A stretch of 64,000 bases of DNA from Candidatus Nealsonbacteria bacterium (lineage in GTDB: Bacteria > Patescibacteriota > Minisyncoccia > Minisyncoccales > MHMH01). Shown here piece by piece: positions 225 through 60,799 of this stretch. Within the stretch, counting starts at the first letter, position 1. Every line of letters begins with the position of its first letter. Where the stretch lies: NCBI GenBank assembly GCA_016188865.1, contig JACPGX010000001.1, positions 13,197 through 77,196 on the forward strand. The letters run 5' to 3'. The notes beneath the pieces are model-generated. The model searched no databases and was not told where the DNA came from. It was given only the letters and a program-made list of their open reading frames with translations. The translations under genes were made by a program, and so were the position numbers.

Positions 225-397
225 ATAATCTGTTCGATTCTTTAATCGTTAATTAATCTTTCTGATAATCGACCTTTAGCTTTACTAACAATACATTATA
301 CTCCTATTAAAAAACTTGTCAAGTGGAACGTAATATTTGCTTTCGTAAATAAACGTTCCAACAGCGTTTAAATTTTCTATGAAAATTCATTACGCTG

Positions 398-470
398 TGC
401 GCGCGGAAGGAATCGGACCTTCTACCTCCTCATTATCAGTGAGGCGTTCTAACCGGTGAACTACGCGCGC
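398..470 (-). tRNA. tRNA-Ile(GAU)
   Basis: Minus strand folds as GCGCGCG-TA-GTTC-ACCGGTTA-GAAC-G-CCTCA-CTGATAA-TGAGG-AGGTA-GAAGG-TCCGATT-CCTTC-CGCGCGC-A; 73 nt, no encoded CCA. Confidence 0.9.
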
Positions 471-557: not shown

Positions 558-699
558 GATCGATCTTTATAAGGCGTTCGATCAATGCCTTAAAGTTGAA
601 AACAGAATTCTCGGTCTTCAACATTAGTCAACACTCCTTACTTAAAAAGTAAGTAAAATTATATGATCCACGGACAGCTTCCGCTACCCGTGCCTTGTT

Positions 700-1139
700 C
701 ATGTTTCCCCCTATATCGCTATAAGGCATGGACTATATCTTCATCCTCTTTTTTAACGTCTTAATCTTTCTCGGGTGCCAAGATCCTATTATTGTCACAA
801 ATTTCTCTTGCGAATGCGCTAAAATAAACATTCGCCAATAATCAGGGTCTATCTTTCTGCTGGGGTTATAAATCTTTCCGGTATTGGAACTGAAAGTTTC
901 ATCATGAAGTGCTCCAAGAAGATAAGCTTTAATTTCTTTTTTACTAAGAGGAGCTTGGCGTGTAGTCTCTGAGGGATCCCGCTTCGCGGGACTTCCCTGC
1001 TGATTTTCTGCACTGAAAACATTCTTACGCATATTAATTTATTTTAACATACGTAGTTTCAGATACACAGATGTTCCAGCAAATAGCCAAGTTTTTACCG
1101 AAAATTACTTTTCGGAGTCGCAACGTGCAGTTTGCACCG
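700..1139 (-). mobile_element. 16S insertion/intron 2 (~440 nt) between GAAGTCGT and AACAAGG
   Basis: Conserved 16S sequence is interrupted exactly between ..GAAGTCGT (ends 1140) and AACAAGG.. (starts 699); contains 99-aa ORF. Confidence 0.75.
733..1032 (-). CDS. intron-borne ORF, possibly a degenerate LAGLIDADG-like endonuclease remnant
   Basis: ORF track 99 aa; only weak motif KAYLLGALHDETF resembling a LAGLIDADG helix; lies wholly in 16S insertion 2. Confidence 0.35.
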   Translation of the reverse strand: MRKNVFSAENQQGSPAKRDPSETTRQAPLSKKEIKAYLLGALHDETFSSNTGKIYNPSRKIDPDYWRMFILAHSQEKFVTIIGSWHPRKIKTLKKRMKI

Positions 1140-1220
1140 ACGACTTCGTCCCTCTCACCGAGCTTAGCTTGATACCCCTTGCAGGGTGCTTTGGCTACTC
1201 CCGGCTCGCTTGACGTGACG

Positions 1221-2095
1221 GATTGAGATCATTGAGTCTATGTCTCGTTCCCAGTTCGATTTTCTATCGAACTCTTAATTTTCCATATTAAGACTGAACG
1301 AACGGATTTCCCGTATTCAGCGAGTCCAAAAAATATGCATTTCTTTTTTCCATTGCTTAATCTGTTCAAGTCCATTTTTTGTTTGATGCCTTTTTTTTAT
1401 CACAGCATCCACGATTTTCTTAAATAATCTGAAGTCGTGAATCTTATTACCTTCTAAAGGATTGGCATCGAAAAATGGTATGATGATTTCTCGAATCTCT
1501 TGAAGTTGTGTTGTTTCGTAGCGGTAGCAATTATGATGATTCGGACGACGATCTTTTTGGAAAGAGATGCGTCCTACCCCGAAGAATTGTTTCACCTTTT
1601 TTAAAAGAGGCAAATCATCTTCCCGTAGTTTTACATAATAATGGCATTCCACTCGATAATTCTTTGCACCATGCTTTTTACTAGGCGGACGGATATAGGC
1701 AGTAAAACTGCCCTCCCCGTCGGTTAGACCAACAATGTAATTTTTCGAAATCATACTTTTTGGTTAGGCCCTTCCCCGTCACAACTTCTTAACGAAGATG
1801 TTGGCGGGTACTATGGCGCTAGCTGACTTCCTAGAACTGTAAGGACTCTATTTCTAGGATATCCCCGGGTAATTTATTCTGCTCTTCCGAGCATCCTATA
1901 AGAAAAATTGATGGACTTCCTTCTGACCGCCCGCAGAAGTCGTTCAATTTCTTTATGATATCATAGGCTGCTCTTTGCCTCAAGCCCTCTGCCCTGAACC
2001 CTTACGAGTCAGGACTGCTATTTTTTTGGCTACCCTGTTTTGCAGGGACAGGATTTTAACCTGTTAGTAGAATAAACCGCCGGGCACAGTTGTTT
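1221..2095 (-). mobile_element. 16S insertion/intron 1 (~875 nt) in the decoding-centre (~1400) region, carries homing endonuclease gene
   Basis: 16S reads ..GTACTCACCGCC (ends 2096) then resumes CGTCACGTCAAG at 1220; boundary ambiguous by 1 nt. Confidence 0.8.
1317..1754 (-). CDS. LAGLIDADG homing endonuclease (single-motif)
   Basis: 145 aa, N-terminal YIVGLTDGEGSF motif; located inside 16S insertion 1. Confidence 0.85.
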   Translation of the reverse strand: MISKNYIVGLTDGEGSFTAYIRPPSKKHGAKNYRVECHYYVKLREDDLPLLKKVKQFFGVGRISFQKDRRPNHHNCYRYETTQLQEIREIIIPFFDANPLEGNKIHDFRLFKKIVDAVIKKRHQTKNGLEQIKQWKKEMHIFWTR

Positions 2096-3468
2096 GGCGG
2101 TGAGTACAAGATTCAGGAACGTATTCATCGCCACATAGCTGATTGGCGATTACTAGCGATTCCGGCTTCATGAGGTCGAGTTTCAGACCTCAATCTGAAC
2201 TGGGGAGCCGTTTGATGCGATTAGCTCCAGCTTGCGCTTTAGCAACGCATTGTCGGCTCCATTGTATCATGTGTGCGGCCCAGGATGTCAAAGGGCCACG
2301 CTGATCTGGCGTCATCCCCACCTTCCTCCTGGTTGTCCCAGGCAGTCTCCTGTGACAGATAAAACACAGGATAGGGGTTGCGCATGTTATCCCATTTAAG
2401 GATGCGTCTCAAGATACATGCTGACGACGACCGTGCAGCACCTGCCACGCCGTCCTTGTGAGAAGTCCCAATTTTCATCGGGATTTCGTCGTGGTTTCTA
2501 ACCCTGGTAAGGTTCTTCGTTTGTTGTCGAATTAAGCCACATGATCCACCGCTTGTGTGAATCCCCGTCTATTCCTTTGAGTTTTAGTGTTGCCACCGTA
2601 CTTCCCAGGCGGGACACTTAACGCGTTAGCTTCGCCACTTGAAGGGTCGACACTTCAAATAGCCAGTGTCCATAGTTTACAGCGTGGACTACAAGGGTAT
2701 CTAATCCTTATCGCTCCCCACGCTTTCGTCCCTCAGTGTCAGGATCGTCCCAGCTGACTGCCTTCGCTTTTGGTGTTCCGCACGATATCAACGGATTTCA
2801 CCCCTACACCGTGCGTTCCGTCAGCCTCTAACGTCCTCGATTCTGCCAGTTTTTTCTGCAGCTCCCAGGTTGAGCCCGAGAGATTTAACAGAAAACTTAA
2901 CAAAAAACCTACGGACCCTTTACGCCCAATAAATCCGGATAACGCTCGAGGTCTCTGTATTACCGCTGCTGCTGGCACAGAGTTAGCAACCTCTTATTCC
3001 ACCAGTACAATCAGCCTTGCGGCTTTCTCCTGGTGAAAAGTAGTTTACAAACCTAAGTCCTTCTTCCTACACGCGGCGTCGCTCGATCAGGGTTTCCCCC
3101 ATTGTCGAATATTCTCGACTGCTGCCTCCCGTAGGAGTATGGGCCATGTCGCAGTCCCATTGTTGGGGGTCGCGCTCTCACGCCCCCTACCCGTCATAGC
3201 CTTGGTGGGCCATTACCTCACCAACTAGCTGATAGGCCGCAGACCCATCCCATTCCCCCTAAGCCTTACGGCCGGGTTTACCCTTGCGGGACTATCGGGA
3301 ATTAACCAACCTTTCGGCTGGTTGTGCCCGTGAATGGGGTTGGTATCTACGTGTTACTAACCCATTTGCCGGTTGCCCTTGCGGGCCCCCATGACTTGCA
3401 TGCCTTATCCACGCCGCCAGCGTTCATCCTGAGCTAGGATCAAACTCTCAAAAAAAACTTAATTTTTT

Positions 3469-3817: not shown

Positions 3818-4447
3818 TTATTTAGATGGGAGCACTTTTAACGGCTCCATAGTTCCGCTTTCGTAAGCCTTAAGAGCGTCCGGAGCAAGAACAATGCGAT
3901 ACATTCTATCCCGGGCCTCAACGCCCTTCAAAGATTGATCCCCAATTCTGGCCTCTAATCTTGAACTCGGAAAGCCAAGCATTCTTACCGCCTGACTTTT
4001 CACTATTCCTGTTTCTCGCCAGGAATCATATGCTCTCAGCATATCGAGCAATTTGCTTTGCGTTGCCCGATAGCCTTCTCGGCCAGCTGCAACATAATTC
4101 ACGACTTTATCGTAGACATCCAAACCAGCCAGATTCGGGTAAGCTTCCATAATGCCGGTGAAAAAAGATGAACCGACATTGAAACCGCCCTTATCGTAGC
4201 GTCCTCTTACCGCATCGGAAAGAATTTGATCTAATTTCTCCGACTTCAAGTTCGCTATTCCCAACTGCTCGTAAAATCCGCTTACATAAGCCGAGAGATA
4301 ATTCTGATTATCAAGGTACTGGGCAGTCAAACGGGTTTCGTGTTGGATACCATCATTTCTTACCCCATTCACCCAGCCGTAAAGACTTAGGCCTACAATA
4401 AGAATTATCGCGACAAATATGCCAAGACCGATTAGAACCCCTTTCAT
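3818..4447 (-). CDS. membrane-anchored protein of unknown function
   Basis: 209 aa; single N-terminal TM (GVLIGLGIFVAIILIVGLSLYGW); AGGAGGAG SD upstream of ATG. Confidence 0.7.
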   Translation of the reverse strand: MKGVLIGLGIFVAIILIVGLSLYGWVNGVRNDGIQHETRLTAQYLDNQNYLSAYVSGFYEQLGIANLKSEKLDQILSDAVRGRYDKGGFNVGSSFFTGIMEAYPNLAGLDVYDKVVNYVAAGREGYRATQSKLLDMLRAYDSWRETGIVKSQAVRMLGFPSSRLEARIGDQSLKGVEARDRMYRIVLAPDALKAYESGTMEPLKVLPSK

Positions 4448-4488
4448 TCGCTTTCTCCTCCTTTTCGTTTTTTTTTGATTTTATTTCC

Positions 4489-5889
4489 TTACGGAGTTTT
4501 TCTCCATGTGCGCTCTCCCACCGCGATGAAAACCAGCCAAACAGGCAGGCAAACCAGAAAAGTGACAAAAAGAATCCAAAATTTCTGCTTTCCAGTCGGC
4601 TCAATTTCACCGGAAAGATAATTAAAATCCTTCATGCTGACTCTATTAAATTTTGTCTGCGGCTTATCGAGTCCCCAGATGATTCTTTCAAGCGCTCCGC
4701 CATTATGCACTCCCCGTATTTTAATCTTTTTTGAGCCATCGTCTTGCGCTGCCGTATAAAATTCTCCATTAACTGTTCCGATTACTGCATCCGGGGTCAA
4801 GGGAACATTCTCCCAAGGAAAATTACGTATCGCCACTATCATTTGTTCATTGCCTAGAGGCATTCCGGTAACCGCCCTCACCCATGCAACAGAATCGCCG
4901 TTTTTTGTCCCAACTACGACAATAATGCTATTTTTACTGATAGCATCGTCGCCAAAAACATCTTTGTTATGCCAATAAGCTTTCAAAGCAAGCAAGTAAG
5001 CGTCGGGATTGGCAGATATAGTTTCGTTCTGGACAATAACCAAATGGAGATCGCCTTGGAGTTCCATTCCTAAAGCTGCGTTGAAATACATTAAGTTCCT
5101 CTGCCAATCTCCGGCATCTTTTGGCGTATAACCGATAAACTGCGCCTTATCAGCATAGTACATATCAACAATATTGCTCTTTACCGGTGGAAGAAGTTTT
5201 AATGCATTGAACCGCTCAATTTCCGAAGAATATTGTTTCAAAATTGTCTGATCGCTTGCCAAAAGATAATTCTGATAAGTCATCCTCTTTGTGACTGGCC
5301 CGGGTTTTCCCGCGTCAAGCCGCGCTTTTACGGCCGACCAAAAAGTTGGAAAACCGCTTCCGGCTCTGTTAATCGCGTATTGAGGTATCGGTTCATATGA
5401 ACGCCAGCGATGCGCTTGCGGATTTTCCGGAAAACGATACGAATCGATAGAGTAAAACCCCAAAGTCGTATCCACGCCGAATGTCCACTCTTCGTTAGCA
5501 TATGGACAATTATGGTATCGCGTTTCAGCGCGATACTGGGTCGTGCAGTTATTTTTACTATCGCATACAGTATACGGCACCATTACCACATATGGATCGC
5601 AGGAATATGTGTTTCGACAGGGGCCGTCGCGAGAACAAGGAATCACCGTCCAAACTGCTTCTTTTTCCCAGCCATTCCAATACTCATTAAAAGAAAGATT
5701 ATTGGATTTGGCAATTTTCCATCCTATGGCTGTTACCGACGGAACAAGCGCTATACTGATAACAAGTATTCCGATGAGATATTCTTTCCATGTAATATTG
5801 TTATGATTTTTCGTTAAATCAAAAACAAATTTCAAAATAAGGCCCGCTAATCCTGTGGCAATAATAGAAAAAATCATCAAGGAAATCAT
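4489..5889 (-). CDS. Cys-rich integral membrane protein of unknown function
   Basis: 466 aa; two N-terminal and one C-terminal TM segments, Cys-rich ectodomain; GGAGGTG SD; co-oriented with 3818-4447. Confidence 0.7.
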   Translation of the reverse strand: MISLMIFSIIATGLAGLILKFVFDLTKNHNNITWKEYLIGILVISIALVPSVTAIGWKIAKSNNLSFNEYWNGWEKEAVWTVIPCSRDGPCRNTYSCDPYVVMVPYTVCDSKNNCTTQYRAETRYHNCPYANEEWTFGVDTTLGFYSIDSYRFPENPQAHRWRSYEPIPQYAINRAGSGFPTFWSAVKARLDAGKPGPVTKRMTYQNYLLASDQTILKQYSSEIERFNALKLLPPVKSNIVDMYYADKAQFIGYTPKDAGDWQRNLMYFNAALGMELQGDLHLVIVQNETISANPDAYLLALKAYWHNKDVFGDDAISKNSIIVVVGTKNGDSVAWVRAVTGMPLGNEQMIVAIRNFPWENVPLTPDAVIGTVNGEFYTAAQDDGSKKIKIRGVHNGGALERIIWGLDKPQTKFNRVSMKDFNYLSGEIEPTGKQKFWILFVTFLVCLPVWLVFIAVGERTWRKTP

Positions 5890-7669: not shown

Positions 7670-7698
7670 AATATACCAAAAACTCAACAAGTAGTCAA
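7670..7698 (-). promoter_or_regulatory. rpsB promoter, leaderless geometry
   Basis: Minus strand TTGACT-17-TATATT then 8 nt to ATG(7661); no SD. Confidence 0.55.
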
Positions 7699-7712
7699 TA
7701 ATGTGATATAAT
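7684..7712 (+). promoter_or_regulatory. pyrH-like promoter, leaderless geometry
   Basis: TCAACA-17-TATAAT(7707-7712) then 7 nt to TTG start at 7720. Confidence 0.45.
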
Positions 7713-7719
7713 CAAATCA

Positions 7720-14181: not shown

Positions 14182-14226
14182 ATATTTATAAATTAATTAT
14201 ATTTTCATTATATCTCGACTTTTTAA

Positions 14227-18840: not shown

Positions 18841-18849
18841 ATTATACCA
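18841..18849 (-). promoter_or_regulatory. extended -10 (TGGTATAAT) 6 nt upstream of acs ATG, leaderless geometry
   Basis: Minus strand ..attGGTATAATaaatcaATG. Confidence 0.5.
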
Positions 18850-18900: not shown

Positions 18901-19197
18901 TCATTCGATGTAGCCCCTCTCGCGCCCCCAGCGAAGCCAAGATTGTTTCATCTGTTCAACATCTCCTCGGGCTTCCGCGGGAACTGGGTCATCACCGCTC
19001 AATATTCTCAAGGCCCGATACCAGCTTCCTCCGCGTTCCCTCAAATCTTTCAGAATAAATGGAATAACTCCTTGACCCATAGAAATAATTTTCAAATAAT
19101 TGTCATTGTCCGTGATGCGAGACGGAGAAGACAGAAAATCAGTCTCCTTATGCCATTGATTTGCTAGCTCAACGAATCTTTTCTCTAATTTCTCCAC
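18901..19197 (-). CDS. hypothetical protein
   Basis: 98 aa; GTG start preceded by AAGGAGGAAAA SD; own terminator. Confidence 0.6.
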   Translation of the reverse strand: MEKLEKRFVELANQWHKETDFLSSPSRITDNDNYLKIISMGQGVIPFILKDLRERGGSWYRALRILSGDDPVPAEARGDVEQMKQSWLRWGRERGYIE

Positions 19198-27667: not shown

Positions 27668-27700
27668 ATAATAGAGCGAGAAGTGTTCTCGCTCTATTAT
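27668..27700. repeat. 15-bp-stem palindrome abutting the start codon of copy 2
   Basis: ataatagagcgagaa gtg ttctcgctctattat, ends 1 nt from ATG(27667). Confidence 0.8.
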
Positions 27701-27702
27701 CG

Positions 27703-27733
27703 CAAACAAAAAAGCGGGGGTCAATACCTCCGC
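27703..27733 (-). terminator. terminator, copy B of the 31-bp direct repeat
   Basis: Identical to 26438-26468; directly downstream of 27747-28076. Confidence 0.7.
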
Positions 27734-27746
27734 TTTAACAAGAGTC

Positions 27747-28076
27747 TTATTCCTTGAAACCAAACCTTGTTTCTAAGCCGGCTCTACGGCAAATCCAGTG
27801 GATCATCGCGGCATCCATGATAATTCCTATCGGTCCCAAGATAATACTTGGAATTCCCACAAAGACCTCATCGTATGCAGTCCAAACTCGTCCCCTTGTT
27901 TCAGTCTTATAAAATTTCGTCATGCCCCTTCCAATGAACCCCAGAACAATCCAGAGAAAAATTGCGAACATCCAAAATATGAATGCAAATGAAAATATGG
28001 GGCCAGTGAAAACTGCTAGCATCACACGATGGAAAAAATCGCCAAGCAACTCTCCGATAAGTTCAAATATCCACAT
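27747..28076 (-). CDS. small multi-pass membrane protein, unknown function
   Basis: 109 aa, hydrophobic segments; AAGGAGGT SD. Confidence 0.6.
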   Translation of the reverse strand: MWIFELIGELLGDFFHRVMLAVFTGPIFSFAFIFWMFAIFLWIVLGFIGRGMTKFYKTETRGRVWTAYDEVFVGIPSIILGPIGIIMDAAMIHWICRRAGLETRFGFKE

Positions 28077-28141
28077 TGTTGCAACCTCCTTTCTTTTTTA
28101 ATGTTCCAGATAACGAATACTAGCATACACATTAAAAAAAG

Positions 28142-29497
28142 TCAATAACCTATGCGGTATTTCGTAAAAGCTTCTTGATAAACTCCCTCGTCCAAAAAGC
28201 CATGGCCGGAAATATTAAAAAGAATTATTTTTTTCTCACCGGTTGCCTTGCACTCGAGCGCTTCTTCAATTGCGGTGGCAATAGAATATATGGACTCCAC
28301 TGCGGGAAAGCCGTGCCGCCTAGGATTATACTCTCCGATATTGGCTACTTGCGGCAGGACAACCGGCGGAGGCAAGGGCCCTTCCGTATCATAAAATAAT
28401 TTAGCGCAGCAAAAAACAAAAGATTCATCGGGAGAAACCGCTTCTATCAAGCCATGATTTCTCAAAAGGCTGATAATCGGAGCGGCTGAAGCGTAGCGCA
28501 AACCTTCAGCTAAAGAAGGAGCGAGTTTTGCTTTATGGCCCAAAGTATACATCTTCAACTTCGGAGTCAAACCGGCGTGGTCAGCGTAGTCATAGCGATA
28601 TTTTCCCTTAATCAAGCTGGGAGCGGCTTGCGTCTGGCTGGCAATAAATCTGATTTTTTTTCCACCCGCCAAAACTTCTTTCATAAAAGGCAGAGCAATA
28701 CCGCCAAAATTACTCCCGCCGCCAAGACAGGATATTACGATATCCGGCCAAAGCCTCAATTCCTCAAACTGCTGACGCGCTTCCAAGCCAATAATGGTCT
28801 GATGCAAAAGCACGTGGTTTAAAACAGAACCCAAAACGTAAACCGTACTTTCGGAGCTGGGTAGATAAGCTGTGTCCTTACGGGAAATGGCATCTTCCAA
28901 GCCTTCGGAAATGGCTATGCCTAAAGACCCTTGATGATTGGGATTATCATGCAAAAGTGTCTGGCCGCATCCTGTATTTGTGCTGGGAGAAGCATAAACC
29001 ACGGCTCCTAATTCTTCCATAAACTTTCTTCTTTCCGGCTTTCTATCGTGAGCCGCTCTCACCCAATAAACCGCCGCCTCAAGGCCAAAAATTTTTGCTG
29101 CGTAAGCCACGGCAGTTCCCCACTGTCCTGCTCCGGTTTCTGTAACTAGCCGTTTAATGCCAGCTTGTTTTGCGTAAAATGCTTGGGCTAAAGCAGTATT
29201 TAATTTATGAGAACCTGTGGGACTGTAAAATTCTGTTTTATAAAAAAGACGGGCGGGAGTTTTCAATGCTGCTTGAAGTTTTTTAGCTTCAACCAGCGGC
29301 CTTGGCCTGCCAATCATCGCATAAATTTGCTGAAGCTCTTTGGGAATTTCAATTTCCGGTTCCCTGCTCATTTCCTGCTTCAAGCATTCCGGCACTAAAA
29401 CTTTCAGCACTTCTTCGCCGCCTTTTGGCGGAGGCAATGGCTCTAAGTATTTTGCCAAATCCGGCACAATGTTATACCAACTCTGAATATTTTCCAT
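28142..29497 (-). CDS. TrpB2-type tryptophan synthase beta-like PLP enzyme
   Basis: ..FYSPTGSHKLNTALAQA..TETGAGQWGTA..; start at MENIQSWYNI with GGAGGT SD. Confidence 0.8.
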   Translation of the reverse strand: MENIQSWYNIVPDLAKYLEPLPPPKGGEEVLKVLVPECLKQEMSREPEIEIPKELQQIYAMIGRPRPLVEAKKLQAALKTPARLFYKTEFYSPTGSHKLNTALAQAFYAKQAGIKRLVTETGAGQWGTAVAYAAKIFGLEAAVYWVRAAHDRKPERRKFMEELGAVVYASPSTNTGCGQTLLHDNPNHQGSLGIAISEGLEDAISRKDTAYLPSSESTVYVLGSVLNHVLLHQTIIGLEARQQFEELRLWPDIVISCLGGGSNFGGIALPFMKEVLAGGKKIRFIASQTQAAPSLIKGKYRYDYADHAGLTPKLKMYTLGHKAKLAPSLAEGLRYASAAPIISLLRNHGLIEAVSPDESFVFCCAKLFYDTEGPLPPPVVLPQVANIGEYNPRRHGFPAVESIYSIATAIEEALECKATGEKKIILFNISGHGFLDEGVYQEAFTKYRIGY

Positions 29498-29584
29498 TAG
29501 CGTACCTCCATCTTCTATTTTCAAGGCGCTAATCCACCATACAAAATCTTCAAAAAAAATCAAGCCCCAAAATAAAACCCCGGA

Positions 29585-30748
29585 TTAACCCGAGGTTTTT
29601 TTACTTAATAGAATTTCCAGATAAGATTTTTTAGTGGTGTCTTTTTTCCTGATGCCGAGCTTTTTCAAGAGTTCGGTGATTTCAGCTTTCCCCTCGTGAT
29701 TCTTAGCGCGGAATTCCAAAAATTCTCCGTTGTTTTCTATTCTATCCATAACGAGTTCCAGATTATCTCTTTCAGAAAATTTTCGCCTTATTTTTTTCAG
29801 AGAAAGCGTTCTTTTATATCCCAACTTTTCCAGTGCGTCTTTTAAACCGGGCTCCACCTCAAACTCAATTTTGGGCTTAATCCTGAAAGAGCCACTGCAT
29901 ACAGGACCTTTGTAGGCAAGAAAATATCTGCCCCCCTCTTCCCTTATGCGCATCAACTCTCCCTTATAATTCTTTTCCCAATTAGGAGCAGAATAGTAGG
30001 TGTCCTGCTGGAGAGCGCTGGATCGCAATCGAAAGCCAATCTTTGCCAATTCGTCCAGAGGAATTTCCCGCCTCAAAAATACTTTAATCTGGATTTCCTG
30101 ACTCTGGCACGATTCAGCTTCAATTTCCGGAACATACTGATTAACGATTATTACATCGGCCCGGGATTTTGTCGGCTCAACGTGCAGCTTATACATCGGA
30201 TAAACGGTTTCTACATACTGCCTAAAAATATCCCGCTCTGTCTGGCCGGTTCTGCCGACATCCCTAAGAAGCCTGCGCAATAAACTTCCGTGAACGCTTA
30301 TATCCACAAAAATTTTACAATCAACTCTGCTGACAATGGTATCATGCAAAGCAAAGAGGCCCTCCAGAATGATTAAGTCAGCCGATTGGAATTCTTCGTA
30401 TCCTTCTCTCGTGCCTGTCTCAAAGGAATAGATTGATTTTTGGATCGAAAGGCCGCATTTTAAAAGTTCCAGGTGCCACTTCAGAAGATCAAGATCAAGA
30501 GCCCGCGGCTCATCCCAATTGTCAGAGCCGATGCTCTCCATGAAATGCCGGCCCTTGAAATAATCGTCCATGCTTAAGATAACTGACCCGGGAAAGCAAT
30601 CGTGAAGACTCTTGGCTACTCTCGTTGTTTTGCCCGAACCCGAACCTCCGGCAACCCCTATAATCAACGGTTTCGTTTTCTTTATCATTCTTTTTATTCT
30701 GCGCTGGATGACTGGCAGTCCTTTGTTTAATTCGTAAGTCTTAGACAA
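29585..30748 (-). CDS. uridine kinase/PRK-family P-loop kinase fused to C-terminal CYTH domain
   Basis: IIGVAGGSGSGKTT P-loop; C-terminal beta-rich EIQIKVFLRREI.. region; probable TTG start (30748) 5 nt after GGAGGTG inside upstream gene end. Confidence 0.7.
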   Translation of the reverse strand: MSKTYELNKGLPVIQRRIKRMIKKTKPLIIGVAGGSGSGKTTRVAKSLHDCFPGSVILSMDDYFKGRHFMESIGSDNWDEPRALDLDLLKWHLELLKCGLSIQKSIYSFETGTREGYEEFQSADLIILEGLFALHDTIVSRVDCKIFVDISVHGSLLRRLLRDVGRTGQTERDIFRQYVETVYPMYKLHVEPTKSRADVIIVNQYVPEIEAESCQSQEIQIKVFLRREIPLDELAKIGFRLRSSALQQDTYYSAPNWEKNYKGELMRIREEGGRYFLAYKGPVCSGSFRIKPKIEFEVEPGLKDALEKLGYKRTLSLKKIRRKFSERDNLELVMDRIENNGEFLEFRAKNHEGKAEITELLKKLGIRKKDTTKKSYLEILLSKKTSG

Positions 30749-31220
30749 TTTTACACCTCCATTCTTCCGGAATAGCGTCGAGTTTCGCCAAATTATGATT
30801 TTCAAATCTTGGATCACCCGTCACTTCTTCGGTCATAATGCCCGTAGGCATTTCAAAAGCATCATCTTTTGATTTTTTCTCGAACTCCAGCAAAACTAAG
30901 CCGCCTAATTGAGCAAGAAAAACATCGAGCTCCAAAATGCCAATGAGATGTCTTGTCTTTCTGATTTTGTTAAACTTTCTGACTCTTAAAAGCGTATTGG
31001 CAAAAGTGCGATGAATTTCCTGCTCATACTCCCGATTAACGCCCGGCTTCTGCTTTATTTTTATTGTCAAATAGTAAGTATCGAAATTCTCAACCCTCAC
31101 TCTAATCGGCGGGTCAATGGAAATATACCATTGAGTGATTTCTTTGCTAGGATATTCAAGATAGCTTCTCGGAAGCGCCTTCACCAAAAATTTTTTTTCA
31201 TTCTCAATCTTTAATTTCAC
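30741..31220 (-). CDS. CYTH-domain (triphosphate tunnel metalloenzyme) protein
   Basis: KLKIENEKKFLV (ExExK) N-terminal motif; probable GTG start at 31220 just after Nudix stop. Confidence 0.7.
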   Translation of the reverse strand: MKLKIENEKKFLVKALPRSYLEYPSKEITQWYISIDPPIRVRVENFDTYYLTIKIKQKPGVNREYEQEIHRTFANTLLRVRKFNKIRKTRHLIGILELDVFLAQLGGLVLLEFEKKSKDDAFEMPTGIMTEEVTGDPRFENHNLAKLDAIPEEWRCKIV

Positions 31221-31221
31221 G

Positions 31222-31626
31222 CTATCCTTCCCTTTTCGAATCATTGATTATCTTGCGATGATCAAATCCTATATTCTCGGGAAGTTGATCCAAAGGGAAA
31301 AATTGAAATTCCAGCGACTCATCGTTAAGACAAATCTCCCCCTTTGTTCTCTCTAAAAGAAAAACCATGGAAACTACGTGGTACCTTGGGTCTCTCTTGG
31401 GATCAGAATACACTCCAATTAATTTTTTAATCCTCACTGAAATTCCCAATTCTTCTTTCATTTCCCTTTTAACCGCTTCTTCAACAGTTTCTCCGTATTC
31501 AACATGACCGCCGGGAATCACCCAATACCCGATAAAGGGATAATAACTCCGTTTCTCCAATAAAATCTTCCCTTCTTCCAAAATCACTCCATCCACGGCT
31601 AAAATCGGACTTCTCGGCTTTTCCAT
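31222..31626 (-). CDS. NUDIX hydrolase
   Basis: Nudix box GGHVEYGETVEEAVKREMKEELG; AAGGAGGAAGG SD. Confidence 0.85.
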   Translation of the reverse strand: MEKPRSPILAVDGVILEEGKILLEKRSYYPFIGYWVIPGGHVEYGETVEEAVKREMKEELGISVRIKKLIGVYSDPKRDPRYHVVSMVFLLERTKGEICLNDESLEFQFFPLDQLPENIGFDHRKIINDSKREG

Positions 31627-31766
31627 GAATCCTTCCTCCTTTTATTGCGAATTTTGTCAATGAACGAAGTTATATTATCAAAAATTTAAAAATTTGACAA
31701 GAAGAAAAACGTATGCTAATCTTCCAGAGTTCGGTTCATTAAAAATAATCGTAAAGGGGGAAAAGT

Positions 31767-32360
31767 ATGAGCCACATCGCGGTTTACAAGACAACGCTGG
31801 GAGAGGTTAATACAGATATTCTGAAAAAAACCCTGGAAATCCTTGCGCTGGAGGAAACCGGCATAGAAATACGCGATTATATAGAAGATTACTACGGGAA
31901 AAAACATAGTTCATGGGAAGGAAATAAGATCATCGGAGCTATATTCAGCCGCCAATTGCAAAAAGGAGTTGGCGTCAGCGTAGATAAGCAGGGGCATCTT
32001 GTTTTTATTTCGCATGAACTAGGACCGGCCTTTGAAAAAATAAAAGCCAGAATTGAGCATATCTATAAAGTGGTTGCTCTGGCAATCGCCCTCCAAAATA
32101 TGGGGTACGAAATCCAGGCAGATGAAAAAATGACGACCCTCGAGGCAACTCTTAATAAAAATAAAATCAGCATTGAAATGAAGGGCAAAGGAGATGTTGC
32201 CACCGACCTTGAAGGATTTGCCGGTAAAACCTGCTTTGAAGAAGCGCAAAAATTAGCAGAAATGCTGAAAGAATTGGGGGTGAACGTTGATGCCAAAGAT
32301 TTGCAGCCAAAACCAGAAAGCCAAATCGAACCGCCCGAAAGGCAAAAACAAAGCTCCTAG
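31767..32360 (+). CDS. DUF1257(Ycf35)-like N-terminal domain fused to DUF2997-like C-terminal domain
   Basis: 197 aa; starts MSHIAVYKTTL; C-terminal ISIEMKGKGDVATDLEGFAGKTCFEEAQKLAEMLKELG; AAGGGGGA SD. Family assignment from memory of family signatures. Confidence 0.6.
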   Translation: MSHIAVYKTTLGEVNTDILKKTLEILALEETGIEIRDYIEDYYGKKHSSWEGNKIIGAIFSRQLQKGVGVSVDKQGHLVFISHELGPAFEKIKARIEHIYKVVALAIALQNMGYEIQADEKMTTLEATLNKNKISIEMKGKGDVATDLEGFAGKTCFEEAQKLAEMLKELGVNVDAKDLQPKPESQIEPPERQKQSS

Positions 32361-32361
32361 T

Positions 32362-32502
32362 ATGATGGTAATTTCTGTCTTGTCAAATGGCGACATTATG
32401 GTGCAAGATTACTCGCATCAAGATGATCGCCAAAAACTCGTTAAAATGCTTCAAAAAATGGGAATAAAAACAGAAGCTATTATTGACAGTCTTTGCGGTT
32501 AG
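32362..32502 (+). CDS. 46-aa mini-protein (DUF2997-shaped, lacks the Cys)
   Basis: MMVISVLSNGDIMVQDYSHQDDRQKLVKMLQKMGIKTEAIIDSLCG; ATG 1 nt after upstream stop; ORF-track 32287 start overlaps gene 1. Confidence 0.5.
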   Translation: MMVISVLSNGDIMVQDYSHQDDRQKLVKMLQKMGIKTEAIIDSLCG

Positions 32503-32512
32503 GGGAGGTAAG

Positions 32513-34330
32513 ATGGACGAAAAAAATAATTTGCCCGAGTGGTTTAATGATCTTGTCACTCAATATCAGGCTGGCATCAGCCGGGAATTTATACTTTTTG
32601 GGAATATCGCTGACTTGATTCGTAATCCTGACGACGAACCGGAAAAACAGTATATTTCTTTTCGAGAATTTTGGGAGAAAATTTTTGAAGAACGTGAAAT
32701 GGTTATTCTTTACAGCATGGCCTGGGGACTCCGTTTCCCTAACAAAGATATGGAAGAACGTTTTAGAATAGCTTCCGGATTCGACCAGCCAGACTCAAGC
32801 TCAACAAGTCCTCTGGCAAAAGTCGGCGTCCTGCAGAAAAGACGGCTTCCTCAAGATCCAGAAACCTGCCTTCTGCTTATTGAAAGAGCGCTTAGAAATA
32901 TACCGAAAATAGCGGTGATGATCTACTTTGCTCACCACGTTGTCCCGGCTGGAGGTCCCGGCGGGACAACGCAGACACCCTCGGAAAGAGTAAACATTGA
33001 AAGACTTGCCCAGTGGGCTTCGAGCGTAGGAATCAAAGAAAGCAAGGGCATTGTCCTATTATTTACTGATAAAATTGCGAACCTTGCCTCGGAACTGCGA
33101 GAAACTAACAGTGGCGTTAAACCGATTATGGTGCTCAAGCCTTCAAGGGCCGAAAGAAAAGAATTTTTGCAATCCATTACCTGCAAGCCACAGCCGAAGA
33201 AAAAGAAACAGCCGCCAGTTGATAGCGAAGGAAAATTTTTAGTACCGGAAGATTTCAACCTGGACGAATTCACCCACGCTACTCAGGGAATGGGCTTCCA
33301 GCAGATTCTTGATATTTTCCTTCGCAGCAAAGAAAGAAAGGGGGCAGTAAATTTAGATTATGTAAAAGAAGAAAAAAAGAAAATACTGAACAGCGAATTC
33401 GGCGAAGTTATGGAGGTTATGGAACCTGCAAGCGGATTCGACGATGTCGGAGGATTGGAGTATATAAAGAAATATTTTAACGTTATTCTTGACGCCATAA
33501 AGAAAGGTGAAAAAAGACTCGTCCCGATGGGAATCACCTTGATGGGTCCTCCGGGAACCGGAAAGACAAAGATTCTTGAGGCACTGGCCTTCGAAGCAGG
33601 CTTCAACTTTGTCAAAGCTAAAAATCTCCGAAACATGTGGGTCGGCGGCTCGGAAGAGAGGATGCAGACTTTCAAATACGGTCTTTATTCACTGGCGCCG
33701 GTTGTGGTTAACAATGATGAGGCCGATCTCGCCGAAGCCGACCGCAATTCTCCGAAAGGAGATTCCGGTGTATCGGAAAGGCACATGAGAGAATGGATGG
33801 ATATGCTGTCCGATCCGAAAATCCGCGGCCAAATTATTGTAATCAACTGCACCAATAGACCCGACAGGCTTGATCCGGCTCTCAAAAGAAGCGGGAGAAG
33901 CGATGACAGAGTCCTCCTGCCCATGCCTTCAGAAGAAGAGAGGAAAGTGATTTTTCCGGTAATGTTCAAGAGATACAAAATACCAACGAGTATTTCTGAC
34001 TTTACAGAATTTGCCGAACTGACAAACGGCTTATCCGGAGCAGATATCGAAAAAATAACATTGAACGCCTTCAAGCTGGCGTTTAAGCAATGCAGGGAAA
34101 AGGTCGACGCAGACGATTTGAAAAAGGCAATTGCCGATTTCATCCCAAGCGCCAGCCAGAAAGAAATCGATCTGATGACCCTTATGGGTATACTGGAATC
34201 TTCATCGCGTGAATTACTGCCGCCTCATATCAAAGAGATTGTCGAGGCGATTAAAAAACGAAACATGGTACCGAACCTTGACGGAATTCTTGCTGAAATC
34301 AAGGCCAGAAAAATTGTGGATATAGATTAA
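32513..34330 (+). CDS. AAA+ ATPase, Ycf46-like (long N-domain + one classical AAA module)
   Basis: Start at MDEKNN after GGGGAGG SD; Walker A GPPGTGKT, Walker B VVVNNDEAD, SRH TNRPDRLDPALKRSGRSD. Confidence 0.8.
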   Translation: MDEKNNLPEWFNDLVTQYQAGISREFILFGNIADLIRNPDDEPEKQYISFREFWEKIFEEREMVILYSMAWGLRFPNKDMEERFRIASGFDQPDSSSTSPLAKVGVLQKRRLPQDPETCLLLIERALRNIPKIAVMIYFAHHVVPAGGPGGTTQTPSERVNIERLAQWASSVGIKESKGIVLLFTDKIANLASELRETNSGVKPIMVLKPSRAERKEFLQSITCKPQPKKKKQPPVDSEGKFLVPEDFNLDEFTHATQGMGFQQILDIFLRSKERKGAVNLDYVKEEKKKILNSEFGEVMEVMEPASGFDDVGGLEYIKKYFNVILDAIKKGEKRLVPMGITLMGPPGTGKTKILEALAFEAGFNFVKAKNLRNMWVGGSEERMQTFKYGLYSLAPVVVNNDEADLAEADRNSPKGDSGVSERHMREWMDMLSDPKIRGQIIVINCTNRPDRLDPALKRSGRSDDRVLLPMPSEEERKVIFPVMFKRYKIPTSISDFTEFAELTNGLSGADIEKITLNAFKLAFKQCREKVDADDLKKAIADFIPSASQKEIDLMTLMGILESSSRELLPPHIKEIVEAIKKRNMVPNLDGILAEIKARKIVDID

Positions 34331-34347
34331 AAAAGGAGGTAAAAAAA

Positions 34348-35286
34348 ATGGGTGGAGGGGGAACATATTACGATAGGGATGTAACCGACAGGAATCGAAG
34401 GACAGATAAGGGTTTTTCAGATGTTGCGGAATCAAAAATGTCTAGAAGCAAAGTTGATGCGGCAGTACTCCCTCGCGGCAGAAAACTTACCTGTACGGCT
34501 AAAAGTCCTGTTGTTTATGCATTTGATGTAACTGGTTCTATGGGCGATCTGCCAAAAATAATTTTTGACAAAATGCCAATGATGGCAGGCCAGTTGATAG
34601 AGAAGGGTTACCTTGAAGATGTGATGATGAGCCTTTCGGCCGTGGGCGATATTCTAAGTGACCAGGCGCCTCTGCAAGTGTGTGATTTCGCTCTTGTTAA
34701 GAATCTGGACGAGTGGCTGCAAAGAATCTGGCTGGAAGGCCAGGGGGGAGGGCAAGCGCGGGAATCGTACGAGTTTATTGCCTACTTCTATGCGAAAATG
34801 TGCGATATTCCAAATGCTGAAACGCCGATATTTCTTTTCACCGGAGACGAAGGGTTCAGAGAAAACCTGCCCGCAGCTACCCTTAGGGAATATTTTGGCA
34901 AAGGAAGTGAAAACACTGACGCCAAAAGCATCTTCGAAGAGTTAAAAAAGAAATTCAAGGGCAATGTATTTCTCATTCATCGGCGTTACAATCAAGGCGA
35001 CCAAGAAATTGTAGCGCAATGGGAAAATGTCCTTGGTAAAGAGAGAGTAATTAAACTTGGCAGTGATTTGGCCATCGCTGATGTAACTTTAGGAGTATTC
35101 GCAATCGTCGCCGGTAAGCGCACCCTTGAAGAATATCTCCAAGACATGAAAACCAGGGGCCAAGACGACCAAAGAATTGCCGAGGTCAGAAAATCCTTGG
35201 AGGTACTGGCTGCTATGATAAAACCCGCCCGCAAAATTTCCAAAAAAGCACCGGCAACAGAAAAGAAAAAGCCGGGAAGGATTTAA
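34348..35286 (+). CDS. vWA-domain protein (MIDAS DxTGS) with basic C-terminal tail KKKPGRI
   Basis: 312 aa; VVYAFDVTGSMGD, ..DQAPLQV.., LEGQGGGQARESYE; AGGAGG SD. Confidence 0.7.
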   Translation: MGGGGTYYDRDVTDRNRRTDKGFSDVAESKMSRSKVDAAVLPRGRKLTCTAKSPVVYAFDVTGSMGDLPKIIFDKMPMMAGQLIEKGYLEDVMMSLSAVGDILSDQAPLQVCDFALVKNLDEWLQRIWLEGQGGGQARESYEFIAYFYAKMCDIPNAETPIFLFTGDEGFRENLPAATLREYFGKGSENTDAKSIFEELKKKFKGNVFLIHRRYNQGDQEIVAQWENVLGKERVIKLGSDLAIADVTLGVFAIVAGKRTLEEYLQDMKTRGQDDQRIAEVRKSLEVLAAMIKPARKISKKAPATEKKKPGRI

Positions 35287-35298
35287 AGGAGGTAGATA

Positions 35299-35763
35299 AT
35301 GATTGTAAAACTCCCTGTGCCAATTTCATCTATTATAGACCAGGCAGTTGATATTTTCGTTTCCAGTCACTCTGGAGTAGAAACTGATAAAAGATACCAA
35401 GGCGCCGACCTATGGATGATACGCAAACACGAAACAGGAAATAGCGATGAGCCGTCTATTGTTTCGCGGCGAATAACAATCGCGGCATATCCAGAAAACG
35501 AAGATGAATTAGTTTTCATACCCGACATTATTGTAACCAAGGCAAACAGCGGTCGCTATGTTCCTACGGCCGAGAAACGAAGGGAAAATATGAGGCGTCT
35601 TTCTATTTTTGATATTGAGGGCCGCTTGTTTCGTAAACGAAACGAAAATCAGAGAAGGAAAGAACTCGAAAAGATAAGAAATGAGATGGTGAAAATATTA
35701 AACTCTGCTTGGGTTGCCACAAACAATCTTTCAACGGCGGATGCGACAGAATTAGTTCCGTAA
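35299..35763 (+). CDS. hypothetical protein, last gene of operon
   Basis: 154 aa, AGGAGG SD, no recognisable motif. Confidence 0.6.
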   Translation: MIVKLPVPISSIIDQAVDIFVSSHSGVETDKRYQGADLWMIRKHETGNSDEPSIVSRRITIAAYPENEDELVFIPDIIVTKANSGRYVPTAEKRRENMRRLSIFDIEGRLFRKRNENQRRKELEKIRNEMVKILNSAWVATNNLSTADATELVP

Positions 35764-35785
35764 TAAGTTTAGATAGTTGTAAATC

Positions 35786-35826
35786 AAAACCCGATGTTTA
35801 CATCGTCAACATCGGGTTTTTTGTTT
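35786..35826 (+). terminator. intrinsic terminator of the 31767-35763 operon
   Basis: aaaacccgatgtt/aacatcgggtttt 13-bp stem + T-run. Confidence 0.8.
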
Positions 35827-35853
35827 AAAACTAACGATGTCGTTCTTCGTTAG
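35827..35853. repeat. hairpin repeat i of Y1-transposase-like gene 3 (3' flank)
   Basis: aaaactaacgatgtcgttcttcgttag; ctaacga/tcgttag stem; abuts stop codon. Confidence 0.8.
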
Positions 35854-36600
35854 TTATTCAATGGCGACTTGTTCCGAATCGGCCAATTCTCTTTTTACTT
35901 GCAGCCAATCATTGACTAATCTTCGGGCTTCTTTAACGCCGCCCATTTCATTAATCAGCCATTCCCTGGCAGTGACGGACGGAAAATTTTTATTGCCAAG
36001 GCAATCGAGATAGCTTGACCAACGATATTCTTCTTCAAGAAATTTAATAATTTTATTTAAATCTTTAATTTTGATTCCCTCTTCTTTCCACTTCGGACAA
36101 ATAATTGCTACTGGATTGGTATGAATATAGACAAAAACAATTTTTAATTGGTTGTCGTTAGTAATATAAACTATTTTATATCTTCCCTGAAAAACATGCC
36201 CCGCTCTTTTATATTTCTGATTATAGTAATGTCCGTATCCAGTCCCAATTTTTCTCATGAGTTTAATTATACCGCCATCTTTGACTTGTCGCACCAACAG
36301 ATGAACATGATTTAACATCAAACAAAATGCCAATATCTCTACTATAATTTCTCTTTTTTCATCTCTTATATTTACTAAACTAACGATGTCGTTCTTCGTT
36401 AATTTTCGTTTTAGAGAAAAATGGCGGGCAACACGGAATTTTGAAGAAACTGGCTTTAAGTCGTTGAATACAAATAAATTATGGATCATTTGCAAATAAT
36501 CTTGCTTATCACGAAAAAGCTTTAGGCCATCTACTGCCCGAATAACAATGTGGTATATTTCCTTAGTAACTAATGGTGGTCTTCTGCCTTTATTCTTCAT
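35854..36600 (-). CDS. HUH/Y1 transposase-like protein, copy 3
   Basis: 248 aa; HUH LMLNHVHLLV, Tyr motif VYIHTNPV. Confidence 0.8.
   Translation of the reverse strand: MKNKGRRPPLVTKEIYHIVIRAVDGLKLFRDKQDYLQMIHNLFVFNDLKPVSSKFRVARHFSLKRKLTKNDIVSLVNIRDEKREIIVEILAFCLMLNHVHLLVRQVKDGGIIKLMRKIGTGYGHYYNQKYKRAGHVFQGRYKIVYITNDNQLKIVFVYIHTNPVAIICPKWKEEGIKIKDLNKIIKFLEEEYRWSSYLDCLGNKNFPSVTAREWLINEMGGVKEARRLVNDWLQVKRELADSEQVAIE
36376..36403. repeat. hairpin repeat ii, inside the ORF of copy 3
   Basis: taaactaacgatgtcgttcttcgttaat; encodes ..LTKNDIVSLV.. in the pre-HUH linker. Confidence 0.8.
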
Positions 36601-36628
36601 AAAACTAACGATGTCGTTCTTCGTTAAT
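36601..36628. repeat. hairpin repeat iii, abutting the start codon of copy 3
   Basis: aaaactaacgatgtcgttcttcgttaat begins 1 nt after ATG(36600). Confidence 0.8.
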
Positions 36629-36631
36629 TAT

Positions 36632-36660
36632 ACTATAGCGAAATAAAAATACCCTGCCAA
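36632..36660 (-). promoter_or_regulatory. promoter of copy 3 (TTGGCA-17-TATAGT)
   Basis: Minus strand cTTGGCAgggtatttttatttcgcTATAGTataatt; transcript would start at the hairpin. Confidence 0.5.
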
Positions 36661-36664
36661 GAGT

Positions 36665-36700
36665 GTCTCCAAGAACGTCTCCAAGAACGTCTCCAAGAAC
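36665..36700. repeat. 3 x 12-bp perfect tandem repeat gtctccaagaac
   Basis: Units 36665-76, 36677-88, 36689-700; directly upstream of the copy-3 promoter. Confidence 0.85.
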
Positions 36701-36709
36701 GAAAGGCTT

Positions 36710-36750
36710 GCCCTCCCACTCATGCATAGGTGGGAGGGCTTGTTTTTTTT
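36710..36750 (+). terminator. orphan plus-strand intrinsic terminator
   Basis: gccctcccac/gtgggagggc 10-bp stem + TTGTTTTTTTT; no plus-strand gene directly upstream. Confidence 0.65.
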
Positions 36751-36799
36751 ATAAAATATGGTAGCGTATAACATCGAACCTTAACAAAGAGGTAAAAAA

Positions 36800-39229: not shown

Positions 39230-39249
39230 AAAAAGGAAAGGAGGAAAAA

Positions 39250-40155: not shown

Positions 40156-40161
40156 AAATAA

Positions 40162-40197
40162 AAAGTCCTGCACTAAGGTGCGGGACTTTACTTTTTT
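40162..40197 (+). terminator. intrinsic terminator after nadE-vWA
   Basis: aaagtcctgcac/gtgcgggacttt stem + CTTTTTT. Confidence 0.7.
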
Positions 40198-40250
40198 AAA
40201 AAATATGATAAAGTGCAATGTTCGTACATTGAAAAAAGGAGGTGGTAAAA

Positions 40251-47004: not shown

Positions 47005-47015
47005 ATATTTATAAA

Positions 47016-55837: not shown

Positions 55838-55889
55838 ATCACCTTAAAAGGTTTATCCGCCTTTGGCGGAGTGTTGCTCCCTGCCTGCC
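55838..55889 (-). repeat. 52-nt direct repeat, copy 1 (intact anticodon loop CTTTTAA)
   Basis: 51/52 identical to 56250-56301. Confidence 0.85.
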
Positions 55890-55986: not shown

Positions 55987-55997
55987 ATGATACTAAT

Positions 55998-60771: not shown

Positions 60772-60799
60772 ATTATAGCAAACCCAAATTAGCAGTCAA
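60772..60799 (-). promoter_or_regulatory. hrcA promoter TTGACT-16-TATAAT, 7 nt before ATG (leaderless geometry)
   Basis: Minus strand cTTGACTgctaatttgggtttgcTATAATactcttgATG; -35 overlaps CIRCE. Confidence 0.6.

Follow-up and report, generated by a model that had tools for sequence, protein, structure and literature searches.

The window analysed here, a 64-kb stretch of DNA from a Candidatus Nealsonbacteria bacterium (GenBank assembly GCA_016188865.1, contig JACPGX010000001.1, positions 13,197 to 77,196), contains a single 16S ribosomal RNA (rRNA) gene, which ends without CCUCC, the core of the anti-Shine-Dalgarno (anti-SD) sequence. Comparison with related 16S genes confirmed that the loss is a lineage-wide trait of a Parcubacteria subgroup and not an artefact. 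Native genes of the window are free of strong Shine-Dalgarno (SD) motifs at their starts; strong motifs of the GGAGG type occur on a second, clustered set of genes featuring a foreign composition and links to phages. It is probable that these observations reflect a clade-wide loss of the anti-SD, SD-free initiation at native genes and the acquisition of SD-led genes as horizontally transferred cassettes.

The 16S rRNA gene is located on the minus strand (3455..664) and is split by two insertions near its 3' end. Its identity as a bacterial small-subunit (SSU) rRNA is given by the Rfam model RF00177 (1280 bits), and helix 45 as well as the subsequent GGAUCA are intact. The parts of the gene and the adjoining sequence are as follows:

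2096..3455, minus strand: 16S exon 1, corresponding to E. coli positions ~1-1403, with the 3' end ...GTACTCACCGCC (RNA letters ...GUACUCACCGCC), supported by the RF00177 match and the spliced 3' alignment
1221..2095, minus strand: 875-nt insertion in the decoding-centre region (~C1403/C1404), bearing an open reading frame (ORF) for a LAGLIDADG homing endonuclease
1220..1140, minus strand: 16S exon 2, E. coli ~1404-1498, CGTCACGTCAAG...GACGAAGTCGT (RNA letters CGUCACGUCAAG...GACGAAGUCGU), aligned contiguously with loci L098, L132 and L020 and with E. coli
1139..700, minus strand: group I intron of 440 nt after U1498 (Rfam RF00028, 74.6 bits, E=4e-17)
699..664, minus strand: 16S exon 3, E. coli 1499-1534, consisting of AACAAGG, helix 45 CACGGGTAGC-GGAA-GCTGTCCGTG (RNA letters CACGGGUAGC-GGAA-GCUGUCCGUG) and GATCA
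654..663, minus strand: 16S 3' tail, UAUAAUUUUA where CCUCCUUUCU is normal; the anti-SD core is missing
637..653, minus strand: 7-bp hairpin CTTACTT-TTT-AAGTAAG directly 3' of the tail, also present in loci L101 and L179

Read directly, the minus strand 699..664 ends with GATCA and continues with TATAATTTTACTTACTTTTTAAGTAAGG; GGAUCA is followed by UAUAAUUUUA-CUUACUUUUUAAGUAAG rather than by CCUCCUUA. The 3' region of the spliced exons 1-3 aligned column for column with the intron-free 16S genes of two relatives (L098 and L132). E. coli positions 1404-1534 aligned with it in the same way. An end-to-end SSU match proposed by Rfam (2048..3455) was rejected, since its last 130 model positions were forced onto intron sequence. 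Below position 3600, a range comprising the 16S gene, its insertions, the spacer to tRNA-Ile and the sequence beyond, a regular-expression search of the rRNA strand detected no CCTCC. Moreover, a displaced GGATCACCTCCTT-like sequence did not emerge within the window, where 11 matches with at most 3 mismatches were found vs. 13 expected by chance. These results agree with a first-pass annotation made from the letters of the window alone, which had reported that the 16S end at 656-700 lacks CCUCC after helix 45 and that no CCTCC occurs on the rRNA strand between 664 and tRNA-Ile (470). The splitting of the gene by two insertions and the lineage-wide extent of the loss had escaped that annotation. 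The covariance-model check it had suggested likewise led to a CCUCC-less end, once the 3' misalignment by Rfam was corrected by means of the spliced exons.

The sequence replacing the anti-SD appears to be more than random spacer. In loci L131-L250 and the window, the nucleotides from position 1 to 8-10 past GGAUCA showed a conservation of 1-2 bits inside each helix-45 subclade, dropping to ~0.2 bits beyond. This collapse after 8-10 nt suggests that the mature 16S rRNA still ends ~8-10 nt beyond GGAUCA, as in E. coli. The replacement tails are specific to the subclade, examples being AUUAAACU, UUUAUUUUU and CUACAUUUUA. Together, these patterns suggest a tail that has kept its length and is still under some constraint, its sequence having changed.

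In order to determine how far the loss extends, one genome per GTDB species was scanned with a helix-45 pattern that ignores the tail, yielding at least 120 loci. Nearly all of them read GGATCA-CCTCCTTT. Seven CCUCC-less loci were found among the matches listed (L020, L080, L089, L098, L101, L120 and L122), with GGCACG[G/C]GUAGC as their common helix-45 form. The closest among the matches listed is L101 (Candidatus Paceibacterota), featuring 86% identity over the 16S gene and an identical flanking gene order; L098 and L020 originate from chromosomes of 655 kb and 829 kb, respectively. The 16S gene of L098 is free of insertions and runs contiguously into GGATCA-TTTATTTTT, and L132 likewise reads GGATCA-TTTATTTTT. 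Since the insertion-free L098 has the same contiguous end, a hidden third intron or a mis-assembly in the window is ruled out. In a neighbour-joining tree calculated from ~375 16S positions (projected full segments, pairwise deletion; L089 and L120 were too short to place), the window, L101, L080, L122, L098 and L020, all CCUCC-less, formed one clade inside Patescibacteria, and the CCUCC-bearing 16S genes of the Uhr-, Magasanik- and Falkowbacteria type were placed outside this clade. In NCBI, proteins identical to those of two window genes carry the organism name Candidatus Nealsonbacteria bacterium.

Furthermore, Joint Genome Institute (JGI) metagenomes were scanned with the helix-45 pattern of the clade, and at least 120 further 16S ends were obtained. 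CCTCC is missing in 113 of 120 metagenomic ends among the matches listed. Six of the seven CCTCC-bearing ends could be compared and showed only 74-81% identity to any CCUCC-less 16S gene over the preceding 600 nt, which identifies them as other lineages and not as second copies in the same genomes. Separately, a locus of a Limisphaerales metagenome-assembled genome (L076, JBIKIW010000061.1; Verrucomicrobiota) has a 16S gene ending GGATCA-TCTCCTTT, which is a C1535U anti-SD variant with no relation to the loss in Parcubacteria.

The gene starts of the window fall into two sets. Among ~57 protein-coding ORFs examined at their likely starts, AGGAGG was found at eight starts and GGAGG or AGGAG at five more, in each case 3-12 nt upstream. 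These 13 core-bearing genes are 3818-4447, 4489-5889, 18901-19197, nine genes of an island (27.7-41.2 kb) and an AAA+ gene (ATG 62476); the distance from their AGGAGG or GGAGG core to the start is 4-10 nt. The SD-led loci are:

3818..5889, minus strand: SD-led two-gene module encoding proteins of 466 amino acids (GGAGG) and 209 amino acids (AGGAGG), inserted between the 16S gene and tRNA-Thr
18901..19197, minus strand: SD-led ORF of 98 amino acids, AAGGAGG, GTG start
27747..42439: SD-rich island comprising 14 genes and an additional, inserted IS200-like gene
60851..62476, minus strand: SD-led AAA+ ATPase gene, GGGGAGG 8 nt before ATG 62476

Within the island, nine of the 14 genes have a core, three others only GAGG, GGAG or AGGA, and one has no motif. 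Accordingly defined, the SD-led set comprises 17 genes, namely the 13 with a core and four island genes with weaker or no motif. Internal in-frame start codons served as background and were preceded by the 6-mer in 0 of 649 and by a 5-mer in 12 of 649 cases. At the likely starts of the ~37 native genes, no SD core of 5 or 6 bases was present. This native set includes rpsB, tsf, pyrH, prfA, bL25, ppdK, acs, gap, eno, ftsZ, ychF, dnaK, dnaJ, grpE, hrcA and corA, as assigned by Pfam, and its upstream regions are A/T-rich. The mean duplex energy with a canonical anti-SD tail amounts to -13.4 kcal/mol for the SD-led genes vs. -2.9 kcal/mol for the native ones. GGAGG-type motifs are present in a host whose 16S tail lacks the complementary CCUCC. 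The first-pass annotation had listed 3818-5889, 18901-19197, the AAA+ gene at 60851, the whole island and a GIY-YIG gene as carriers of GGAGG sites; the first three entries hold, the island does so only in part, and no GIY-YIG gene was recognised in the set of ORFs examined. Its statement that several housekeeping genes lack an SD was reproduced.

The same picture was obtained for relatives. For 451 genes located beside CCUCC-less 16S genes on 113 contigs, the share with AGGAGG was 2.2%, and the share with any core of 5 or 6 bases was 8.9%. These values are near chance, because each gene has several candidate starts, and the background per internal start is 0.4% for AGGAGG-type 6-mers and 1.6% for a 5- or 6-mer core. 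No recurrent gene family keeping an SD was found in the CCUCC-less contigs, and the SD-led genes present in them are hypothetical or accessory. A corresponding count for Actinobacteria and Chloroflexi (8%) was set aside as a sensitivity control, because longest-ORF starts are unreliable at high GC content.

Several native genes have a promoter so close to the start codon that there is no room for an SD:

7670..7698, minus strand: rpsB promoter, TTGACT-17-TGgTATATT, with the end of the -10 box 8 nt from ATG 7661 (promoter scan)
7684..7712, plus strand: promoter of the pyrH-like gene, TCAACA-17-TGaTATAAT, the -10 box ending 7 nt before TTG 7720 (promoter scan)
60772..60799, minus strand: hrcA promoter directly behind a terminator, TTGACT-16-TGcTATAAT, with the end of the -10 box 7 nt from ATG 60764
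18841..18849, minus strand: extended -10 box of acs, TGGTATAAT, 6 nt before ATG 18834, just 3' of a terminator hairpin

A scan for extended -10 boxes added ftsZ (TTGACC-17-TGtAATAAT, 9 nt from the start codon) and xseA (TGaTAAAAT, 8 nt). In total, six of ~9 TG-extended -10 boxes within 60 nt of native starts fall 6-9 nt away from the start, compared with less than one predicted by a uniform spread. In all six genes, a -10 box of the sigma-70 type lies ~5-9 nt upstream, which suggests that they are transcribed into leaderless mRNAs. Among the promoters near starts named in the first-pass annotation, those of rpsB, the pyrH-like gene and hrcA were recovered by the promoter scan and that of acs as an extended -10 box, and the corA candidate proved to be weak. 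For the pyrH-like gene (7684-7722), TTG 7720 is the sole possible start, which would represent an unusual non-AUG leaderless start if the transcript is leaderless. As a further observation on upstream regions, the fructose-bisphosphatase (FBPase; 14182-14215) and cupin (47005-47040) genes on the minus strand share near-identical sequences of ~30 nt, ATATAAT(A)ATTAATTTATAAATAT followed by ATGAAA, possibly representing a common promoter/leader or else a small repeat.

Composition, gene order and phage homology support the assignment of the SD-led genes to accessory, phage-associated imports. The GC content at third codon positions (GC3) is 0.43 for SD-led vs. 0.38 for native genes (Mann-Whitney p=2.6e-5), CGN codons account for 45% vs. 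24% of arginine and CTN codons for 62% vs. 38% of leucine. The distance between the 16S 5' end and tRNA-Thr is 0.1-0.5 kb in L101 and L098 and 2.6 kb in the window, the extra DNA being exactly the SD-led pair 3818-5889, which is absent there in both relatives. The island, in turn, occupies a slot between ftsZ and an HI0933-like gene that is variable among relatives. Locus L128, with 77% NadE identity, keeps the backbone NAD(P)HX dehydratase-NTP transferase-FtsZ ... HI0933-like-YchF-cupin and has different, SD-less genes plus NadE in the slot between FtsZ and HI0933-like. At the left edge of the island, a dCMP-deaminase gene and the greater part of an IS200-like Y1 transposase gene lie between the two copies of a 46-nt duplication of the ftsZ promoter region (26428, 27693). 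Another gene of this transposase type is located inside the island, accompanied by 42-nt hairpin-containing repeats (35826, 36375, 36600). In Logan assemblies of the same organism (SRR12113383/384/419/424), the right-hand island junction and the surroundings of the 18901 ORF were confirmed; because independent assemblies agree on this junction, the island is not a chimera.

Genes of the island encode a PALP enzyme, a uridine kinase-CYTH protein, a NUDIX protein, an AAA ATPase, two phrog_2971-like proteins, a NadE-CN hydrolase-NMNAT (NadE-NadD) fusion and a PurA-like protein; a weak match to the pyruvate-kinase barrel remained below the Pfam cut-off. Proteins of the island and the pair matched PHROG families phrog_1383 ('virion structural protein'), 2087, 2971 (twice), 8638 and 6660. 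Moreover, phrog_2971-like and PurA-like genes are neighbours on a 197-kb viral contig. Viral contigs carrying the pair of 466 and ~210 amino acids have 34-46% GC, and a homologue of the 466-amino-acid protein was also found on one of 68% GC. A scan for close relatives among viral contigs with the 466-amino-acid protein gave no match; homologues were recovered by an alignment-based scan. Sequence searches of the PDB with the proteins of 466, 209 and 301 amino acids returned no significant match. The AAA ATPases 32513-34330 and 60851-62476 were considered as close paralogues and rejected, since they share 27% identity over the AAA core only.

The modules have a wide distribution. The 466-amino-acid protein has more than 300 homologues, and those with a named source belong almost entirely to Parcubacteria-type lineages (45-62% identity). 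The description of the SD-led genes as 'recent imports' in the first-pass annotation therefore requires a distinction: codon usage, synteny and PHROG/viral links argue for imports, and 'recent' holds only in relative terms, as at least the 466/209-amino-acid pair and the AAA-NadE block are old and widely shared. As an observation in its own right, the module of 466 and ~210 amino acids (phrog_2087, phrog_1383) is present in many Parcubacteria and in phage-like contigs spanning 34-68% GC (viral loci L256-L262). Likewise, the island (27747-42439; also L129 and L130) combines genes of nucleotide and NAD metabolism with an AAA ATPase and two phrog_2971-like genes, and may represent a phage-type auxiliary metabolic or counter-defence cassette.

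Anti-SD loss is a known phenomenon, as it has been published for a Parcubacteria subgroup, and the organism studied here is another member of this group. In the study of Tsurumaki et al. (2022, RNA 28:1041; PMC9297842), CCTCCT was undetectable at the 16S 3' end in the subgroup and was detected in 48% of Parcubacteria. The anti-SD-less lineages overlap the group without uL1, and SD helices are presumably absent from them (PMC9297842). The window and the subgroup are alike in their phylum-level group and the missing anti-SD. The paper provides the detection rate and the correlation with uL1 loss, and it contains no tail sequences, gene-level SD analysis or SD-led cassettes (PMC9297842). In the window studied here, the rplK-rplA region, which would hold the uL1 gene, is not included. 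A literature search combining Shine-Dalgarno with Patescibacteria, Paceibacteria or Nealsonbacteria retrieved nothing beyond this study within the library searched. Anti-SD loss was also described by Lim, Furuta and Kobayashi (2012; PMC3457768) for some Flavobacteria, insect endosymbionts (Sulcia, Blattabacterium, Carsonella and others) and haemotropic mycoplasmas. In these genomes, every 16S copy has U/A-rich sequence in place of the CCUCC core, and upstream regions are A-rich with no SD-like signal at all (PMC3457768). The window resembles them in the U/A-rich replacement and in the setting of reduced genomes or weak prior SD dependence; it differs in belonging to an unrelated lineage, the candidate phyla radiation (CPR), and in that about a quarter of its genes carry very strong SDs in imported blocks. 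The absence of any SD signal extends to the ~37 native genes and the 451 genes of related contigs, but not to the ~17 clustered genes of the window.

Leaderless translation as known from Actinobacteria, Deinococcus, archaea and mitochondria shares with the window a -10 box 6-9 nt before the start and the lack of a 5' untranslated region (UTR) and SD; in the window, leaderless mRNAs are deduced from sequence, and the UUG start of the pyrH-like candidate would be unusual. Bacteroidetes are similar in that most genes are SD-less with A-rich leaders and a small minority has strong SDs. They keep CCUCC, however, so that residual SDs can pair, whereas in the window the partner is absent. Work by Jha et al. 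from 2021 is said to describe this Bacteroidetes-type SD-independent initiation, in which the anti-SD is sequestered.

For the lineage of the window, a course of events can be proposed in which the CCUCC core was lost long ago and the tail sequence was replaced with its length kept. With the anti-SD lost, native genes would be translated without SD pairing along two routes, namely from leaderless or near-leaderless mRNAs specified by an extended -10 box whose distance to the start codon is 6-9 nt, and from short, A/U-rich, unstructured leaders. The strong-GGAGG genes would be accessory cassettes obtained by horizontal transfer, partly phage-associated and placed at variable sites. Their SDs would have been inherited from SD-using donors or reservoirs and, finding no rRNA partner, would be inert in this host, the genes presumably being translated by the same SD-independent route.

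Some results weigh against this explanation. The 16S count is limited to the visible 64 kb of the genome, and SD-led genes were, in a crude count, not rarer in CCUCC-less contigs than in neighbouring CCUCC-bearing Patescibacteria. Furthermore, the 466/209-amino-acid pair, found at another locus in the diverged Parcubacteria contigs L251, L253 and L255, keeps SD-like motifs there (GGGAGG/AGGAG, AGGGAGG/AGGAGG and GAGG/AGGA, respectively), and neighbouring genes have none. The AAA-phrog_2971-like-NadE/NadD-phrog_2971-like block is colinear in L129 at 53-71% protein identity; every block gene in L129 has an SD, and the flanking native genes do not. Neutral relics alone are hard to reconcile with the kept motifs, if the hosts of these four contigs, which do not include the 16S gene, are also anti-SD-less. 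If the hosts keep an anti-SD, the motifs are maintained there, and the copies in the window are transfers from such reservoirs; if they lack it, something else maintains GGAGG.

The SD-led genes could be served by ribosomes with a canonical CCUCC tail, derived from another 16S copy of the genome or forming part of a heterogeneous pool, as the first-pass annotation had considered. The restriction to 64 kb leaves space for such a copy, and CCTCC does occur in 7 of 120 metagenomic ends of the same helix-45 type among the matches listed. Given their low identity to any CCUCC-less 16S gene, however, these ends are not paralogues, the loss is clade-wide, and no anti-SD-like sequence is present elsewhere in the window. 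Moreover, one matching stretch each from the L098 and L020 chromosomes was among the matches listed, which is weak evidence, and CPR genomes usually have single rRNA genes. A second copy is therefore highly improbable, and the suggestion was not upheld. A different view would be that the absence of CCUCC is an artefact of assembly or annotation, or that a third intron after GGAUCA, so far unrecognised, separates the gene from its real tail. The two insertions already present and the Rfam misalignment of the 3' end gave reason to consider it, but the rRNA strand is free of CCTCC down to and past tRNA-Ile, intron-free relatives have the same contiguous CCUCC-less end, and more than 100 independent assemblies concur, so that this view is effectively refuted. 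The anti-SD might also have been replaced instead of lost, the A/U-rich tail pairing with A/U-rich leaders as an alternative SD system. Conservation of the first 8-10 tail nucleotides in subclades, indicating a retained and constrained tail, and the A/U-rich native leaders would fit this idea. It is nevertheless very unlikely, as native upstream regions paired with the real tail at -1.95 kcal/mol and with shuffled tails at -2.39 +/- 0.30 kcal/mol, 93% of the shuffles being equal or better; in addition, tails vary between subclades, and A/U duplexes this short are very weak.

A further possibility is that GGAGG is still functional in this host, being under selection and read by a protein or another RNA in place of the 16S tail, or being needed by modules that shuttle between anti-SD-bearing and anti-SD-less hosts. 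It is favoured by the motifs that the pair and the AAA-NadE block have kept at protein identities of 47-71%, with flanks and neighbours lacking them, and by the eight perfect AGGAGG sites of the window. On the other hand, roughly half of Parcubacteria keep the anti-SD (PMC9297842), and phage homologues are found in SD-using settings, so that reservoirs with selection for SDs exist. Furthermore, no recurrent family keeps an SD in CCUCC-less contigs, and the older resident NadE is preceded by no more than GAGG, in the window as well as in L128, a hint in favour of decay after import. A function of GGAGG in this host is thus considered unlikely, and the narrower claim that GGAGG on the pair and the AAA-NadE block is actively maintained in anti-SD-less hosts appears quite doubtful. 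Were it true, either GGAGG would have to be read by something besides the 16S tail, or the subclade-specific replacement tail of preserved length would have acquired a new function. Acquisition of the SD-led genes as cassettes by an anti-SD-less lineage accordingly remains the preferred explanation.

Loss of the anti-SD shows that a large, widespread bacterial radiation can dispense with SD pairing. It affects gene calling, since start models rewarding SDs misplace starts in these genomes, and it bears on the expression of CPR genes in heterologous hosts and on the interpretation of ribosome reduction in CPR. Should the pattern of the window hold genome-wide, a strong SD in an anti-SD-less genome may flag horizontally acquired DNA, and the length-preserving, subclade-conserved replacement tail would be a useful detail. 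Neither SDs as a mark of import nor the conserved tail alters the basic published picture; the residual puzzle is why some mobile modules retain strong SDs across Parcubacteria.

In the 875-nt insertion of the 16S gene, an intact LAGLIDADG ORF (1317-1754) was identified (Pfam PF00961, E=2.5e-20); Rfam gave no group I match for this insertion and a weak match to group II D1-D4 (E=0.003). The insertion is absent from the 16S genes of L098 and L132. When the LAGLIDADG ORF was looked up in public assemblies, no match emerged, because no genes are called inside the rRNA in these assemblies. The insertion at 700-1139 was assigned to group I introns by RF00028, its 74.6 bits exceeding the cut-off of 50. 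As read from the sequence, its 5' splice site features a U.G pair (AGUCGU/GCGACU), and the terminal G precedes AACAAGG. A remnant ORF of 99 amino acids in this intron (733-1032) had no Pfam match. Insertions with homing endonucleases in rRNA genes are typical of CPR (PMC9297842).

Downstream of the 16S gene, the following feature was annotated by ARAGORN and Rfam:

470..397, minus strand: tRNA-Ile(GAT)

Within positions 1-470, the 16S gene and tRNA-Ile are followed by a gene for a KhpA-like KH-domain protein (Pfam PF13083) instead of tRNA-Ala and 23S rRNA. The rRNA genes are unlinked, as no 23S rRNA gene is located next to the 16S gene and tRNA-Ile. Regarding mobile elements, three IS200-like Y1 transposase genes are present within the 64 kb (9978-10700, 26942-27763 and 35854-36600). 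Furthermore, a 52-nt direct repeat, 98% identical (55838-55889 and 56250-56301), flanks tRNA-Lys (55913-55987) and may represent an integration scar.

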